A stretch of 64,000 bases of DNA from a virus. This document shows positions 3,202 through 17,905 of this stretch, piece after piece (the first letter of the stretch is position 1; every line of letters starts with the position of its first letter). Below the pieces are notes generated by a model. It ran no database searches. It worked only from the letters and a program-made list of their open reading frames with translations, and was not told where the DNA came from. The position numbers were made by a program, and so were the translations under genes. Location of the stretch: the UHGV virus genome UHGV-1366990. The stretch is one strand, 5' to 3'.

Positions 3202-4437
3202 TCAGCGTTTCAAGAGTGTCATGAGGTTGACGCTGCTGGACTTCGGCTTGTCCTCAACCTTGCGCACAGGCATCTTCAGGTTTGTGTAGACCTCGGACGG
3301 TTCCCAGCGCGTACCCTTTTGCAGGTGCCAGATATGTAGAGGAACACCAGTCTCAAAGAACACAGGCATCTTCCACTTCTGGACGCCTGGAACGTGCCCT
3401 GTAGGAGCCTTTTCACATAACAGGGTATCTGGCAGCCAGAGCGAACGGGCTTCCCAGAGCGCTGCGCAGGAGTATTCAGGCCAGACGCGTTCCATGTAGT
3501 CTATCTCATCCCAGGTACGCTCTGCGTCCCACCCGATGTAACGGGTATTCTTCAGTCGGAAGAATTTCTTCAGCCAACAAGCACCGGAGGTTTCAAAGTT
3601 CAGGCGGTTGATGAACGTCAGGTGCCCGAACTCAGCCACACAATCCTGGAACGCCTGCTCAAGGTCGGCCTCAAGGATGTCACACTCTTCATCCGTGATA
3701 GGACAACCGTTGATCTTTTTCTTCCCGTGTTTAGTCACCCAATCGTCACGGTTGGACAAGAACGCCGCGCCATTACGGTTGGACTCGCTTCCATCACGAT
3801 CACGCAGCATGAAGCCAGGGACGTCAATGGTGTATTCGTTCCCGAAGACCATGTTCAGGGCTTCCAGGAAGTTCCAGGCGCTCAGGCGACCGAAGTATTT
3901 CCAGGACATCGCCGTGTCCCACAGCTGGGTGAATTGTTCTGTCTTATCGATGCACACCAACATCCCACGGAAAGCGTCATATTGAGTACGGCCAGCCAGC
4001 CAGTCAATATAGGACTGAACACACGGGATCATCTTGGACTTGCGGTAGCGACAGTCGGTATCGAATCGCATGCGATCAAAGTTCAGATTATACCAATCAG
4101 AGAAGCGCTGCATCTCTTCTTTGGACTGGGGTGGTACAGGGAACTCACTGTAGATCGTCCACGGCCCGACAGCGTTATAGCAACAACCCCACAGGAATGC
4201 CATCCAGATCTTGCGCTCGACTTTCTGTTCGAGACTGATGCCTTCAGTGACTTCGATCGCATAGTCCATCAGACGCATCTGCTGGTTGTGCTCTTCTGTG
4301 TAGGACAGCGCCTCCACCCAAGCCTTGAGCAGGTACATACGATTCTCAGGCTTGCGATAATCAACAGCCAGGTCAATCGGGTACTTCCATTCAGTCGGAG
4401 GCTTATAGCCCGTCGGCATTTTAGATAAATGATGCAT
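3202..4437 (-). CDS. hypothetical protein (411 aa); candidate nucleic-acid modification enzyme
   Basis: Long ORF with GAGGAAG RBS; Trp/Cys-rich; no motif I can name with certainty. Confidence 0.6.
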   Translation of the reverse strand: MHHLSKMPTGYKPPTEWKYPIDLAVDYRKPENRMYLLKAWVEALSYTEEHNQQMRLMDYAIEVTEGISLEQKVERKIWMAFLWGCCYNAVGPWTIYSEFPVPPQSKEEMQRFSDWYNLNFDRMRFDTDCRYRKSKMIPCVQSYIDWLAGRTQYDAFRGMLVCIDKTEQFTQLWDTAMSWKYFGRLSAWNFLEALNMVFGNEYTIDVPGFMLRDRDGSESNRNGAAFLSNRDDWVTKHGKKKINGCPITDEECDILEADLEQAFQDCVAEFGHLTFINRLNFETSGACWLKKFFRLKNTRYIGWDAERTWDEIDYMERVWPEYSCAALWEARSLWLPDTLLCEKAPTGHVPGVQKWKMPVFFETGVPLHIWHLQKGTRWEPSEVYTNLKMPVRKVEDKPKSSSVNLMTLLKR

Positions 4438-15290: not shown

Positions 15291-15322
15291 ATAAAAAGAA
15301 AGCCGGATAGGATATCCGGCTA
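15291..15322 (-). terminator. intrinsic terminator closing the minus-strand tRNA cluster
   Basis: Hairpin agccggatag/gatatccggct followed on minus strand by ttcttttt. Confidence 0.5.
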
Positions 15323-15377
15323 TACCACATCGATGGGATGGGTTGAAAGACTACACGCTTGCACTGGTACTACCCTA

Positions 15378-15406
15378 TGGGAGAGCGCGTCAGGAGTCGA
15401 ACCTGA
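15378..15406 (-). other. tRNA-like T-arm hairpin (perfect TCAGG-TTCGACT-CCTGA) without a foldable cloverleaf; possible degenerate tRNA
   Basis: Canonical T-loop on minus strand but no matching acceptor 5' strand found by hand. Confidence 0.25.
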
Positions 15407-15537
15407 AGTCGTCGACGTAGAGAAAGCTATTTGCATTTCACTATCCTCGTCGCGATTTTCTTAACTTCCTAAACACCCGATTACGAGAGAGTCGACATGC
15501 ACATCTTCTAACTCTTCAGGAAGTCACGCCCGTAATT

Positions 15538-15626
15538 TGGCGGAAGGTGAAGGATTCGAACCTTCGGGGGCTAAAAGCCCCACTCGATTAGCAGTCGAGT
15601 CCCTTAAACCTCTCGGGCAACCTTCC
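15538..15626 (-). tRNA. tRNA-Ser (anticodon GCU), type II with long variable arm, CCA encoded
   Basis: Hand-folded: acceptor GGAAGGT/ACCTTCC, anticodon stem CTCGA/TCGAG, loop CTGCTAA, variable stem GGGGC/GCCCC, T-arm GAAGG-TTCGAAT-CCTTC. Confidence 0.85.
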
Positions 15627-15847
15627 AATTTGGACGGGCTTCACACCCGATTGAGCATTTGATCTGCCGTAGCCCAACTCCCCGCGCTTCTCAGCGCCGA
15701 TTGGTTAACTGGCGACCAGTGCCTTCTGGTTCGATCTCCTGGAACTTTACAGGCTTTGCGCCCGACCATTTCTGGAAGTTGGGGCATCGTTTCCGATGCG
15801 GAGTCATCCCCATTTTATACACAGCTGGCTGCAACGCTTACTGTGTT

Positions 15848-15891
15848 TGGTGTGAGTGGATGGATTCGAACCACCGCGCTGTTACACTCAC
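15848..15891 (-). other. tRNA-like minihelix: acceptor-like stem plus canonical T-arm and encoded CCA, no D or anticodon arm
   Basis: GTGAGTG...GGTGG-TTCGAAT-CCATC-CACTCAC-A-CCA on minus strand. Confidence 0.25.
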
Positions 15892-16148
15892 ATTTGGTCT
15901 GCCGCTGTGTGCTGGGCCACGCTCGAGGACATCGGCCATCCTTCCTCAGCTAATCCACGCAGCGGTAGATTTGTATCAGAGTGTCCGGTGTAGCAACCCG
16001 TGAGGTGCGCACTACTGTAGCCTCTACACTCTGAATTTGGTGGGCGCTACTATCGTCGTCTTCGGATTCCGTTCGGCTATTGGACAGAGGCTTGGAGCTT
16101 GTCGGTCGCGTACTTTATGCCTATTCACTTTCGTTCACACCCATTGTC

Positions 16149-16224
16149 TGGCGACGATGGCAGGACTTGAACCTGCGACATACGGTTTAACAGACCGCCG
16201 TTCTACCGACTGAACTACATCGTC
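16149..16224 (-). tRNA. tRNA-Asn (anticodon GUU), CCA encoded
   Basis: Hand-folded: acceptor GACGATG/CATCGTC, D-arm GTTC-AGTCGGTA-GAAC, anticodon loop CTGTTAA, T-arm GCAGG-TTCAAGT-CCTGC. Confidence 0.85.
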
Positions 16225-16395
16225 TTGCAAATCACTATACCATATAAAGTTTATTGAACAAACATTTATTTTACAACAAACTGTATTGGCGGGGTCTGAG
16301 GCTTTTCACCTCACCTGCTGGGTTTGGCCGCCCAGCCGTTCTCTATGAGGATTCACTGTCCGGACAGCTATCCATTAAACTATCGCCCCTCAATA

Positions 16396-16472
16396 TGGTG
16401 ATCCTGATTGGGTTTGAACCAATGACCAATGAATTATGAGTTCACTGCTCTAACCGACTGAGCTACAGGACC
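16396..16472 (-). tRNA. tRNA-Met (anticodon CAU; initiator/elongator/Ile-lysidine not distinguished), CCA encoded
   Basis: Hand-folded: acceptor GGTCCTG/CAGGATC, D-arm GCTC-AGTCGGTTA-GAGC, anticodon loop CTCATAA, T-arm ATTGG-TTCAAAC-CCAAT. Confidence 0.85.
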
Positions 16473-16684
16473 AAATTATTGTGTACCAACCAAGGACTGT
16501 CAACCCTTTATCCCGTTTGTGTATGATCAGTTCATGCATGCCTCTTTGTGCTGCCTCACGGCATGCGCTTCTGTGGGTCTTTGGCTTGCACCATAGCCTC
16601 GCCACAGGCGTTTATTTTTCCAGGGCTTTCCACTTACAAGTCTTAACCAGACCGGGATACGGGCTTGTAAGATCGGGTTGGACA

Positions 16685-16762
16685 CAACTTTGATAGCTCT
16701 GGTACTAAAGATCCCGCGTCACCCATAGACATGGTTTATAAAATCCAGAGCTATCAAAGTTG
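16685..16762. repeat. perfect 18-bp inverted repeat (caactttgatagctctgg / ccagagctatcaaagttg) around a 42-nt loop
   Basis: Read directly from sequence: 16685-16702 pairs with 16745-16762. Confidence 0.6.
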
Positions 16763-16783
16763 CACCCAATGCTCTCTCAAGTT

Positions 16784-16909
16784 CACAAATCGAAGTGCCC
16801 TGACTCAACAGTATGGCCCAATATGCTGTTATCGTCCACCGGATTGGCCGCCCAATTTGTAGATCAACCTTTGGGTTTAAGATAAATTGTCAAGACACTT
16901 CGATTTGTG
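16784..16909. repeat. perfect 14-bp inverted repeat (cacaaatcgaagtg / cacttcgatttgtg) spanning ~100 nt
   Basis: 16784-16797 pairs with 16896-16909; both arms followed by CCC. Confidence 0.5.
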
Positions 16910-16994
16910 TGCCCTTCACCTGCCAGGGATCAGGGCTGATGGCAAGACTTCGCTCACATCTTTCAAGATACTCGTGAGAATATCCTCAAAGATG

Positions 16995-17022
16995 TGGAGC
17001 CGTTTTTAGGAGTCGAACCCAA
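16995..17022 (-). other. tRNA-like 3' end (CCA, acceptor-like strand, T-arm TTGGG-TTCGACT-CCTAA) without complete cloverleaf
   Basis: T-loop consensus on minus strand; no 5' acceptor partner found. Confidence 0.2.
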
Positions 17023-17905
17023 ATGCTTGGCCAGCGCTGACCTTACATCCCATCTGACTTAGGCAACCCACCTCTGCTTACTCAGGAGCTTATCCCCTTT
17101 GGACAGTCAGATATAACGGCATTGTCGACGGGAGATTATTAATCACACCCTCCCGTCTATTTTAGTGCGCCGAATTTGGTGATGAGGAATCGGAAGACCT
17201 CACTGACTTATAGGCTGTTACGCCGCCATCAGAACTTCGGAATCATTAGCAGTTATTTGCTTGGTCAGTTTCTAAAAACCCGCAAAGTCACTCACAACGA
17301 AAACGAAAACCTGTTTGAGCACAAGACGCCATGTCCTGGGTTCACATCGAAGTGTTTGTCTAATGCCCAAACAGCTTTTCGCTTCAGTGGGTTAACTATA
17401 CTTTGTAACCCGTTATTGATAAAACCTTTTATTTTTGTTGGCGAGGGTATCACCATCGATTTACCGGAACTTACGCATCCGGCCTCGCCTGTTGGTGATC
17501 CTTCGAATCCGGGAAGATCAGTAGGAACTATGAATCAAGTTAATTCAACCAACAGGAACCTTGTTGCCCTTTGACGCAACATTATGAACCCTCTATGGAA
17601 GACTCATAATGTTGTCGGCGTGATGGAGATTAGCGCCCCCGACCTCCCCTTGTGTTGGTGTCGACTTGCCAACGGGGTGCTCTCTATTTCTGAGCTAATC
17701 ACGCTACAACAGGGAGTTTCGTTCTCCGACGGTCAAGTGCGTCCACTGACACCATGCAAGGTGGATATTGACTTATGAAGCCGGAGTCCTCGTCCTAGGA
17801 CTGTGCTTGGCCTCAGCCTTTACACCGCTGGTCGCCCGACTCTTTACACCATAAAATTTACTATACTACAGCCAAGCTAATTTGAAAAGTCCTCTCCTCT
17901 TTGTG

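Follow-up and report, generated by a model that had tools for sequence, protein, structure and literature searches.

The window analysed here, a 64,000-nt stretch of virus genome UHGV-1366990, comes from an Ackermannviridae phage. Between a promoter-like site (17422-17395) and an intrinsic terminator (15321-15293), three tRNAs and one broken tRNA-Tyr lie among the conserved non-tRNA RNAs X, E, MA, A, B, C, D and F, and all features described are on the minus strand (Table 1). The initial annotation had flagged 1.8 kb of this tract as a tRNA cluster within structured non-coding RNA; the start of the tract, with the tmRNA-related module X that comes first in the operon, falls just upstream of the flagged range. 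The best explanation, which we consider probable, is that the flagged 1.8 kb makes up most of a ~2.1 kb minus-strand RNA operon without a convincing protein gene, in which RNA modules that fold independently follow one another, X being the first. The putative promoter P1, identified by its consensus match, has a counterpart in the same arrangement in Dickeya phage JA15 (TTGTCA-16-TATAGT). P2 is also kept in JA15, where it stands directly before module MA, as is the terminator.

Table 1. Features of the RNA tract, listed in the order of the minus strand.
Feature	Coordinates	Strand	Description	Basis
P1	17395..17422	-	sigma-70-like promoter (putative), TTATCA-16-TATAGT, upstream of module X	consensus scan, 9/12 matches
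Module X	17127..17304	-	tmRNA-related RNA: antisense arm, surrogate tag template, two covarying hairpins	homology, alignment A4
X 5' arm	17273..17304	-	antisense to host tmRNA	covers pseudoknot 1 3' strand, resume codon, tag codons 1-5
X tag frame	17218..17250	-	GCU AAU GAU UCC GAA GUU CUG AUG GCG GCG UAA = ANDSEVLMAA*	
X hairpin	17164..17203	-	GUGAGG[UCUUCCGAUU]CCUCAU, with downstream AAAUUCGGCGCACU	100% paired, 3 compensatory pairs
X terminal hairpin	17127..17157	-	invariant 14-nt loop GGUGUGAUUAAUAA	compensatory changes in 4/4 stem pairs
Module E	16995..17120	-	acceptor GCCGUU/AACGGC, two long arms, T arm, U73, CCA	four-way junction fold
Second CGGCCAA-loop hairpin	16839..16855	-	copy 2 of the repeated motif	sequence read
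Long hairpin	16680..16767	-	near-perfect, -52 kcal/mol	z = -6.6, equal stability in 0/200 shuffles
P2	16475..16503	-	promoter-like site, TTGACA-17-AATAAT, abuts the CAU tRNA	11/12 consensus matches
tRNA, anticodon CAU	16396..16472	-	Met or Ile2	ARAGORN, Rfam
Module MA	16287..16389	-	tRNA-like spacer (weakly supported), GGGGCGAUAG...ACCCC-G-CCA	fold with closing helix, z = -1.9
First CGGCCAA-loop hairpin	16318-16335	-	inside MA	
tRNA-Asn(GUU)	16149..16224	-		ARAGORN, Rfam
Module A	16038..16142	-	closing helix GGGUGUG/GCGCCC, then A-CCA	covariation
Module B	15977..16033	-	57-nt three-way junction, loop-loop pseudoknot GUAG:CUAC	alignment A5
Module C	15895..15969	-	long bulged hairpin ending AGA-CCA	covariation
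tRNA-Tyr(GUA) remnant	15848..15891	-	40-nt internal deletion	alignment A1, with the intact tRNA-Tyr of four relatives
Module D	15631..15845	-	multi-hairpin spacer ending CCCGU-CCA	covariation
tRNA-Ser(GCU)	15538..15626	-		ARAGORN, Rfam
Module F	15378..15531	-	7-bp acceptor GGGCGUG/CGCGCUC, T arm (15390-15406), U73, CCCA	covariation
Terminator	15293..15321	-	intrinsic, end of operon; 9-bp stem then T run	

The noncoding tract is kept in hundreds of Ackermannviridae genomes, from the genera Kuttervirus, Agtrevirus, Taipeivirus and Limestonevirus. Homing endonuclease genes are present in this region in relatives. STnc100, annotated in Klebsiella phage P01, was considered and set aside because it sits in an insertion absent from the window. 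Between relatives the modules share 93-97% identity, compared with 70-80% in the flanks, and they are gained or lost as whole units; their order is shuffled among genera, with B and C swapped in Taipeivirus. The strong conservation could partly stem from recent exchange between phages rather than from selection. Going beyond the initial annotation, the spacers between the tRNAs are themselves conserved folded modules, some of them common to unrelated phage families. Most modules have (N)CCA at their end, with AAAU(U) behind it. We infer that transcription would yield a primary transcript cut at the module borders by host tRNA-processing enzymes, RNase P producing the 5' ends and RNase E with exonucleases acting at the CCA-AAUU junctions, and that the cut modules would then persist as small stable RNAs.

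ARAGORN and Rfam at its gathering threshold each returned exactly three tRNAs, the Ser, Asn and CAU species already claimed from the letters, all with a complete cloverleaf and a 7-nt anticodon loop (RF00005, threshold 29 bits, scores 56-76 bits). No further tRNA emerged when the Rfam cut-off was relaxed to E<=10. As orthologues of the CAU tRNA are entered as tRNA-Ile in several relatives' records (tRNA-Met in others), it is possible that this tRNA decodes AUA rather than AUG. The three orphan T arms reported alongside the tRNAs are also present, and the idea that they conceal complete tRNAs was rejected with ARAGORN and the relaxed Rfam search. The 44-nt acceptor/T-arm minihelix described at 15848-15891 exists, ends in ACCA and folds as a single hairpin (z = -2.4). 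Alignment A1 reveals it to be tRNA-Tyr(GUA) minus exactly 40 nt, comprising the D arm and the anticodon arm. The deletion junction was found in 0 of 50,697 phage records, and the tRNA-Tyr is freshly broken, having lost these arms in this genome only. A pseudo-tRNA is annotated in Det7 and is longer in Ag3.

Modules E (126 nt) and F (154 nt) do not form a cloverleaf, as oversized arms replace the D and anticodon arms. Both retain the acceptor stem, the T arm and a 3' CCA-like tail, the parts read by host tRNA enzymes. The T arm of E (UUGGG-UUCGACU-CCUAA), whose T loop is also matched by the Rfam tmRNA model, is followed by AAACGGC-U-CCA, and that of F (UCAGG-UUCGACU-CCUGA) by CGCGCUC-U-CCCA. 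One long arm of F holds GUGCAU, whilst another carries the loop GUGAAAUGCAAAUAGC. Across 15 unique sequences the 30 pairs of F are 99.8% canonical with 10 compensatory pairs, and acceptor and T-stem variants occur among the homologues. These compensatory base changes support the structure of F, which is therefore not a decay product. The 12 unique homologues of E are 100% canonical with zero compensatory changes, and are thus too invariant to be informative; E is present or absent as one unit between relatives. We conclude that E and F are conserved tRNA-like RNAs rather than products of decay. Of the origins first suggested for the fragments, decayed tRNAs therefore holds for the tRNA-Tyr minihelix and fails for E and F, for which small stable RNAs is the likelier option; both are built like T4 species 1 RNA.

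Among the remaining spacers, module B is supported by covariation (alignment A5; 19 pairs, 94.8% paired, 9 compensatory pairs), the observed value being reached by 0/500 shuffles on all five measures. It has no CCA tail, and it also adjoins tRNAs in the tRNA arrays of T5-like and N4-like phages. Canonical pairing was 97.5% in C (10 unique sequences, 4 compensatory pairs), 99.4% in D (17 unique sequences, 2 compensatory pairs), of which JA15 has a shorter version, and 97.4% in A (16 unique sequences, 2 compensatory pairs), which is near-invariant across genera. In MA, a single comparison by eye showed compensatory change of two stems in JA15. The hairpin motif that had been seen to occur twice is borne out by the 11-mer TTGGCCGCCCA at 16324-16334 and 16844-16854, both copies forming a 5-bp hairpin with the loop CGGCCAA(A) on the transcribed strand. 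Dinucleotide shuffles of the window averaged 0.02 matches and 0/100 gave at least two, in a post hoc test of a word picked after being seen. The long hairpin drew spurious miRNA-like matches from Rfam and nothing else; from its predicted fold it is a candidate double-strand-specific processing site.

Module X is previously undescribed as an RNA. It occurs in hundreds of enterobacterial phages and prophages, being common to N4-like, sipho-, Ounavirinae and lambdoid phages, and is annotated as an RNA in none of them. Within 450 nt of 57% of its copies there is neither a tRNA nor a tRNA-like RNA, and X is therefore independent of the rest of the operon. An origin as a host gene fragment was rejected, since the pattern was present in only one of the GTDB species-representative genomes and is prophage-borne in E. 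coli. In alignment A4 the structure of X is 92% paired, compared with 84.5% in shuffles (0/500 as high). A pseudoknot of CCGA with UCGG between the GUGAGG/CCUCAU hairpin and AAAUUCGGCGCACU is possible; these pairs never vary and are thus uninformative.

The central part of X carries a frame of 10 codons and a stop in 96/96 unique copies, encoding 14 distinct peptides. Synonymous variation is seen at Ala1, Asn2, Leu7 and Ala10, all three stop codons are in use, and residues Leu7 and Ala10 are invariant. An upstream in-frame AUG, GUG or UUG was absent from 86/96 copies. The resume codon is preceded by a conserved U at -5 and A at -4, as in E. coli tmRNA, and the Rfam alignment places the frame on the resume, tag and stop region of tmRNA. 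The frame is thus built like that of tmRNA, with a resume codon in place of a start codon and the stop(s) in helix 5. Every X copy tested gave sub-threshold matches to tmRNA families, four Rfam tmRNA families being involved. The best score was 39.9 bits against the gathering threshold of 47 for tmRNA_permuted, which it does not reach, and the copy in the window scored 22.3 bits. Neither the window nor 15 loci with X gave a tmRNA call in ARAGORN. Pairwise alignment of X with E. coli ssrA gave nothing convincing, and sense and antisense matches were seen solely by profile search. No tRNA-like domain (acceptor stem with G3-U70, T arm, CCA) was found in X.

The antisense match is to the 5' arm of X: in an nhmmer search the profile of X hit E. 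coli ssrA in reverse complement. In 95/96 copies the arm pairs better with nt 55-112 of host tmRNA than with the copy's own template region, with mean duplex energies of -35.7 and -20.6 kcal/mol, respectively, E. coli tmRNA being the only target used in these comparisons and mononucleotide shuffles and each copy's own template region the controls. The duplex of the window copy's arm with tmRNA was also computed. A divergent Ounavirinae copy of X keeps its complementarity to tmRNA despite a different indel pattern, and its own predicted promoter would place the arm at the RNA 5' end.

Several searches were made for a tRNA-like partner that could complete X. X with F, or X with E, as a two-piece tmRNA was rejected: no complementarity was seen by eye, and F is not of alanine type. 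The two do lie next to each other in one phage group, with F 271 nt downstream of X, yet most X copies stand alone. F as an alanine-accepting tmRNA domain also failed, as the T-stem register sets the wobble at 2:71 and the pair is A-U in Det7-type phages; no G3-U70 was found in the neighbouring tRNA-like RNAs E and F. Around X in the lambdoid prophage, a search for an acceptor strand GGGGCU... with a 3' partner gave no consistent stem, and the tRNA-like element present there has G3-C70. A literature search for tmRNA-like or anti-tmRNA RNAs in phages, or for tmRNA in Ackermannviridae, returned nothing relevant.

Most likely, X would dock on host tmRNA, where we infer that it either silences the tag template or puts the phage's version in its place. 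As a tentative proposal, X may be a parasitic tmRNA template, masking the host template and supplying its own tag. Its arm would anneal to host tmRNA from pseudoknot 1 through the resume codon into the first codons of the tag, masking the host ANDENYALAA template and tethering the correctly framed template of X to SmpB and the charged tRNA-like domain of the host. Ribosomes that have stalled would be rescued as before, and nascent chains would receive a phage tag (...LMAA or ...LAVA) with an altered proteolytic fate. We know of no mechanism by which a ribosome uses a template merely base-paired to tmRNA through pseudoknot 1 and the template region.

Rather unlikely is the account in which X does no more than inhibit or sponge host tmRNA by antisense pairing, the frame being an untranslated leftover of an ancestral ssrA fragment. 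It would explain the strong and conserved complementarity of the arm, and fits both the lack of a tRNA-like domain and the lack of a tmRNA call by ARAGORN; moreover, antisense oligonucleotides against tmRNA reduce trans-translation by >95% in vitro (PMC7038980). However, an untranslated leftover does not account for a frame held at 10 codons plus stop in every unique copy, nor for the invariant Leu7 and Ala10. Because this constant frame is accompanied by synonymous variation, the use of three stops and the conserved frame-setting U(-5)A(-4) context, we read the signature as that of a translated template and not of a relic.

For the tract as a whole, it is unlikely that the spacers are processing scaffolds only, guiding RNase P, RNase E, RNase III and tRNA folding and being without a role once excised. 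The (N)CCA-AAAU(U) at nearly every module end may well resemble the RNase E site that follows the 3' end of a tRNA, the long perfect hairpin (16680-16767) resembles an RNase III substrate, and minihelices are known RNase P substrates. Against this, ~1.6 kb of conserved structure for three tRNAs is far above other tRNA operons, and only 5-10 nt separate neighbouring tRNAs in T5-like and N4-like arrays. Modules also outlast the adjacent tRNA, JA15 having A, B, C and D although it lacks tRNA-Asn, tRNA-Tyr and tRNA-Ser, and a coding signature is present in X.

Still less likely is a tRNA graveyard, in which the non-tRNA parts are functionless remains of tRNA genes and their similarity reflects recent recombination, with gene conversion driven by homing endonucleases in a mobile tRNA island. 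The tRNA-Tyr remnant fits this description precisely, the Det7 pseudo-tRNA with its longer form in Ag3 may be counted with it, and the tRNA sets of relatives vary widely (Tyr, Trp, Gln, Leu, second Ser). HNH endonuclease genes adjoin the CAU tRNA in KpS110 and AR2819, and the shuffled module order would also fit. However, the helices of B, C, F and X are maintained by compensatory changes, which are not expected from decay; B and X are found in unrelated phage families at 70-85% identity with structure preserved; and the oversized arms of E and F, with their invariant loops, are found in no tRNA. That the tract encodes small proteins on either strand, as several GenBank records have it, is very improbable: ORFs of 40-132 codons are present and 'hypothetical proteins' are annotated here in CECAV_050, Det7 and AR2819, but these annotations conflict in position and strand across records (many of which are blank), the alignments contain indels, and the RNA helices covary, with G-U pairs on the tRNA strand.

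Clusters of tRNAs in phages are commonly taken for codon-supply or anti-defence devices, with the stretches between tRNAs ignored or called hypothetical ORFs. Here the spacers are the main content of the tract, as conserved, covarying RNAs of which some are mobile between unrelated phage families, and RNA annotation becomes possible for hundreds of phage and prophage records that are now blank or carry spurious ORFs. If X works in the way suggested here, trans-translation would for the first time have been found to be targeted or reprogrammed by a phage RNA; this would account for the way in which lytic and temperate phages deal with tmRNA tagging, and tmRNA retargeting would gain a design from nature. 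Should the parasitic-template reading be true, hundreds of enterobacterial phages and prophages would reprogram trans-translation via one small RNA, and E and F would be further members of a toolkit directed at the translation apparatus.

The closest known counterpart of X is tmRNA, including its two-piece (permuted) form. Both have a resume codon GCA or GCU after U(-5)A(-4) and a 10-codon tag, which in X begins AND(D/E/N), and in both the stops lie in a helix-5-like hairpin followed by a hairpin and a possible pseudoknot. However, X lacks the acceptor stem, the T arm and the alanine identity pair, and charging is therefore impossible. The tags of X have LMAA, LAVA or LAAA at their end where those of tmRNA have ALAA, it measures ~180 nt against ~360 nt, and no tmRNA has a 5' arm antisense to host tmRNA.

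HDV-like theta ribozymes sit downstream of phage tRNAs (PMC10879173). Module B is likewise a small pseudoknotted RNA found right after phage tRNA 3' ends, and in T5-like phages it directly follows tRNA-Lys. However, its own 5' and 3' ends close P1, and it has two kissing hairpins rather than a nested double pseudoknot. B matched no ribozyme family in Rfam at E<=10, and its assignment as an HDV-like/theta or other known ribozyme or riboswitch was rejected on this and on its topology in alignment A5. The tRNA arrays of T5-like, N4-like and Ounavirinae phages also have B and X embedded between tRNAs, but consist mostly of tightly packed tRNAs, which are a minority in the present operon.

A close parallel in arrangement is the T4 tRNA cluster, where species 1 (rnaC) and species 2 (rnaD) are small non-tRNA RNAs amid phage tRNAs on the tRNA strand, their roles being still reported as unknown (PMC3014915). 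As in the present case, a homing endonuclease gene lies nearby. Species 1 RNA (139 nt) folds on the plan seen in E and F, which lie in a tRNA cluster as it does: a closing acceptor-like stem, a canonical T arm and two long arms. The likeness is purely architectural, with no detectable sequence similarity, and rnaC, unlike E and F, has no encoded CCA. As for rnaD, it shares short words with X by eye and was rejected as a relative, an nhmmer search of the T4 region with the X profile having found nothing. The spacer modules open the species 1 and 2 RNAs of T4 to comparative study, and the present operon differs from the T4 cluster in that its non-tRNA modules far outnumber the tRNAs and include the tmRNA-related X.

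The flagged region (15330-17100) is matched by several hundred Ackermannviridae genomes. Escherichia phages vB_EcoM-ZQ1 and A221 match best, at 98.9%, and members of Kuttervirus and Agtrevirus come next, with Taipeivirus and Limestonevirus among the remoter matches. All features treated here lie on the minus strand, where they are arranged as an operon of tRNAs and other RNA modules (see table) that host tRNA enzymes would cut into stable RNAs. ARAGORN and Rfam both call the three tRNAs of the initial annotation, and a relaxed Rfam scan, which might have revealed complete tRNAs behind the tRNA-like fragments also described there, found no further tRNA in the region. Records disagree on the CAU tRNA, which is named tRNA-Ile in fGh-Ecl02, ECML-4 and MK-13 but tRNA-Met elsewhere, Det7 included; it could be a tRNA-Ile2 of the lysidine type, reading AUA. 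HNH homing endonuclease genes adjoin it in Klebsiella phage KpS110 (comparison locus L006, 3461-3874) and Salmonella phage AR2819 (L007, 3361-3774), much as segB lies within the T4 tRNA cluster (L152, 2254-2919).

Features of the minus-strand RNA operon, in order of transcription.
Feature	Position	Strand	Description
Promoter-like site	17422-17395	-	conserved in JA15
X	17127-17304	-	tmRNA-related module; just upstream of flagged region
E	16995-17120	-	tRNA-like; four-way junction fold: acceptor GCCGUU/AACGGC, two long arms, T arm, U73 + CCA
Long hairpin	16680-16767	-	exceptionally stable, z = -6.6
Second promoter-like site	16503-16475	-	abuts CAU tRNA
CAU tRNA	16396-16472	-	ARAGORN and Rfam
MA	16287-16389	-	spacer module
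tRNA-Asn(gtt)	16149-16224	-	ARAGORN and Rfam
A	16038-16142	-	spacer module; 97.4% canonical pairs, 2 compensatory
B	15977-16033	-	57-nt three-way junction: P1 8 bp, P2 4 bp, P3 3 bp, loop-loop GUAG:CUAC; 94.8% of cells paired (19 pairs), 9 compensatory
C	15895-15969	-	spacer module; 97.5% canonical pairs, 4 compensatory
Minihelix	15848-15891	-	44 nt
D	15631-15845	-	spacer module; 99.4% canonical pairs, 2 compensatory
tRNA-Ser(gct)	15538-15626	-	ARAGORN and Rfam
F	15378-15531	-	tRNA-like; 7-bp acceptor, long arm with conserved GUGCAU, arm with ~30-nt loop GUGAAAUGCAAAUAGC, T arm, U73 + CCCA
Intrinsic terminator	15321-15293	-

At least three T arms without a complete cloverleaf had been reported, and three were recovered where they had been placed. 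One belongs to the minihelix. In four relatives the Asn and Ser tRNAs have an intact tRNA-Tyr(gta) between them, and alignment with these shows the minihelix to be this tRNA minus exactly 40 nt. The lost segment comprises the D and anticodon arms, and the sequences bordering it are identical. The deletion junction is spanned by none of 50,697 phage genomes, and it therefore represents a recent decay event private to this genome, or perhaps an error of assembly. Decay of this kind is seen a second time in the 'pseudo tRNA' annotated upstream of tRNA-Ser in Det7 (L003, 1414-1502), an internally deleted version of a longer element in Ag3 (L004, about 2125-2212) that still has its T arm; acceptor strands and CCA are kept in both.

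The other two fragments, E and F, are conserved tRNA-like RNAs. The helices of E are 100% canonical in 12 unique homologues, which are too alike for compensatory change to appear, and E is gained or lost as a unit among relatives; KpS110 retains just its 3′ strand and CCA. For F, 99.8% of cells are canonical over 30 predicted pairs in 15 unique sequences, 10 pairs being compensatory, and its acceptor varies as GGGCGUG/CGCGCUC, GAGUGUG/CGCACUC, GGGUGCG/CGCACUC, GGGUGAU/GUCACUC and GGGGUAU/GUACCUC. Some Ackermannviridae (L073, L084) add another tRNA-like element right after E, with an 11-bp closing stem GGGAGGUAUCU/AGAUACCUCCC and a T arm UCCGG-UUCGAAU-CCGGA, which is missing from the window.

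The spacers match the tRNAs in conservation between genera, and they are better conserved than the flanks (93-97% versus 70-80%). Their order varies, B and C being swapped in Taipeivirus, and modules are singly present or absent. Most close with (N)CCA and then AAAU(U), a sequence suggestive of a tRNA-type 3′ end and an RNase E-like site. Outside this family, T5-like phages have B directly 3′ of tRNA-Lys(CTT), and in N4-like phages it separates tRNA-Ser from tRNA-Met. In a structure test on 15 sequences, the value observed for B was reached by no shuffle on any of five measures; its pseudoknot and conserved loops are uninformative, having been set by the search pattern. No module matched an Rfam family in the relaxed scan. 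The repeated motif noticed previously, TTGGCCGCCCA, does occur twice in the window against 0.02 copies expected by chance, as judged post hoc. Each copy folds on the RNA strand as a 5-bp hairpin with the loop CGGCCAA(A), and the stem of the first changes from CUGGG/CCCAG in the window to CUGGA/UCCAG in Dickeya phage JA15. Conservation in JA15 also extends over the tract that separates the long hairpin from the CAU tRNA (16473-16680), where small ORFs are annotated in Det7; at least one stem there changes in a compensatory way (CUUACAAG/CUUGUAAG to CUUGCAAG/CUUGCAAG). Klebsiella phage P01 has the sRNA STnc100 annotated within the same non-coding tract (L005, 3208-3422), in an insertion without counterpart in the window.

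Besides B, X is the only module common to unrelated phages. It was found in N4-like Pollock, siphoviruses BUCT541 and STGO-35-1, Ounavirinae and a lambdoid prophage of E. coli 55989, where it lies between the Q antiterminator and holin genes. A pattern scan placed it in more than 119 viral contigs, a lower bound; 677 phage records were matched by a 536-nt query containing it, 29 of the 30 matches listed resting on the X part, and it is present in 137/5,426 E. coli genomes. It has never been annotated as RNA. In the 55989 prophage X stands between two long hairpins (L150, 3899-3968 and 4152-4228) whose 17-bp stems are nearly identical (CACAACAGGUAAGAGCA/UGCUCUUAUCGUUGUG), and their inner strands could pair alternatively across it; next comes a tRNA-like element that has D and T arms and ends CGCCACA-A-CCCA. 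The loop sequence UAUGGGGCUUGGCUUAAAUGCA, which includes another resume-like word, UAAAUGCA, is conserved beside X in this prophage (3925-3950) and an Ounavirinae phage (L154, 845-870). In 37/113 unique contexts X is followed within 450 nt by orphan T-arm elements of various kinds for which no tRNA is called, many of them ending N-CCCA and not N-CCA. Sub-threshold Rfam hits to the Yersinia sRNA Ysr251 (60-66 bits, threshold 100; L053, 4092-4283 and L045, 3268-3459) fall on contigs having X and F adjacent.

A profile of X searched against E. coli ssrA gave two matches. The template region matches in sense, whilst X positions 4-38 match the reverse complement of tmRNA nt 65-104. This arm can pair with tag codons 3-5 (GUUUUCGUC with GACGAAAAC), the resume codon (GCGAC with GUCGC) and the 3′ strand of pseudoknot 1 (UUUGCGG with CCGCAAA, UUUUUA with UAAAAA). 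It complements the host's codons and not those of X: in 95/96 copies its predicted pairing is better with host tmRNA nt 55-112 than with the module's template region (mean -35.7 versus -20.6 kcal/mol). In all 21 representatives the best duplex lies within tmRNA nt 20-117 and has its 3′ end at nt 104-117, with z ≤ -3.8 against mononucleotide shuffles in 18; the weaker duplexes are those of L032 and of two copies whose 5′ region differs. One divergent copy, from Ounavirinae, differs in its indel pattern and still retains the complementarity (UAGUUUUCGU...GCGUCUAUUUUUGC), and its own promoter puts the arm at the RNA 5′ end.

The sense part carries a coding signature. Its frame is exactly 10 codons plus a stop in 96/96 unique copies, giving 14 different peptides (ANDDVVLMAA, ANDEQFLAVA, ANDNTFLAVA and ANEEMYLAVA amongst them); that of the window, ANDSEVLMAA, compares with the E. 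coli tag ANDENYALAA. Synonymous variation is seen at Ala1, Asn2, Leu7 and Ala10; each of the three stop codons is in use. An in-frame UAG stands 8 codons upstream, without a start codon between, in 86/96 copies. Positions -5 and -4 help set the reading frame in tmRNA, and X has the same U/A there as E. coli tmRNA. X has two hairpins, with 3 and 4 compensatory pairs, a helix encloses the stop codon, and overall 92% of cells are paired versus 84.5% in shuffles. The Rfam tmRNA families give a hit on every copy tested, always below threshold (at most 39.9 bits versus 47); X has no tRNA-like domain, and ARAGORN calls nothing on it.

From this complementarity, X would dock on host tmRNA. It might then simply inhibit it, and antisense oligonucleotides against tmRNA do abolish trans-translation in vitro (PMC7038980). 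However, the coding signature argues that the frame of X is read, and we therefore favour replacement of the host template over simple inhibition. We know of no precedent for a template merely base-paired to tmRNA; tmRNA stays functional with a hairpin in place of pseudoknot 1, and a duplex there is accordingly less implausible. A two-piece tmRNA formed by X and F is unsupported, since most copies of X stand alone and F is not an alanine-type RNA. The two are 271 nt apart in one phage group, versus 1.8-3.5 kb in Ackermannviridae with tRNAs between.

The T4 tRNA cluster contains species 1 RNA (rnaC), which shares its fold plan with E and F and whose role is still described as unknown (PMC3014915). 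Stable tRNA-like RNAs in phage tRNA clusters are thus, via T4, of a kind already known. As far as the literature searched and Rfam 15 show, the novelty lies in how many modules there are, in their being common to several phage families and, above all, in X.
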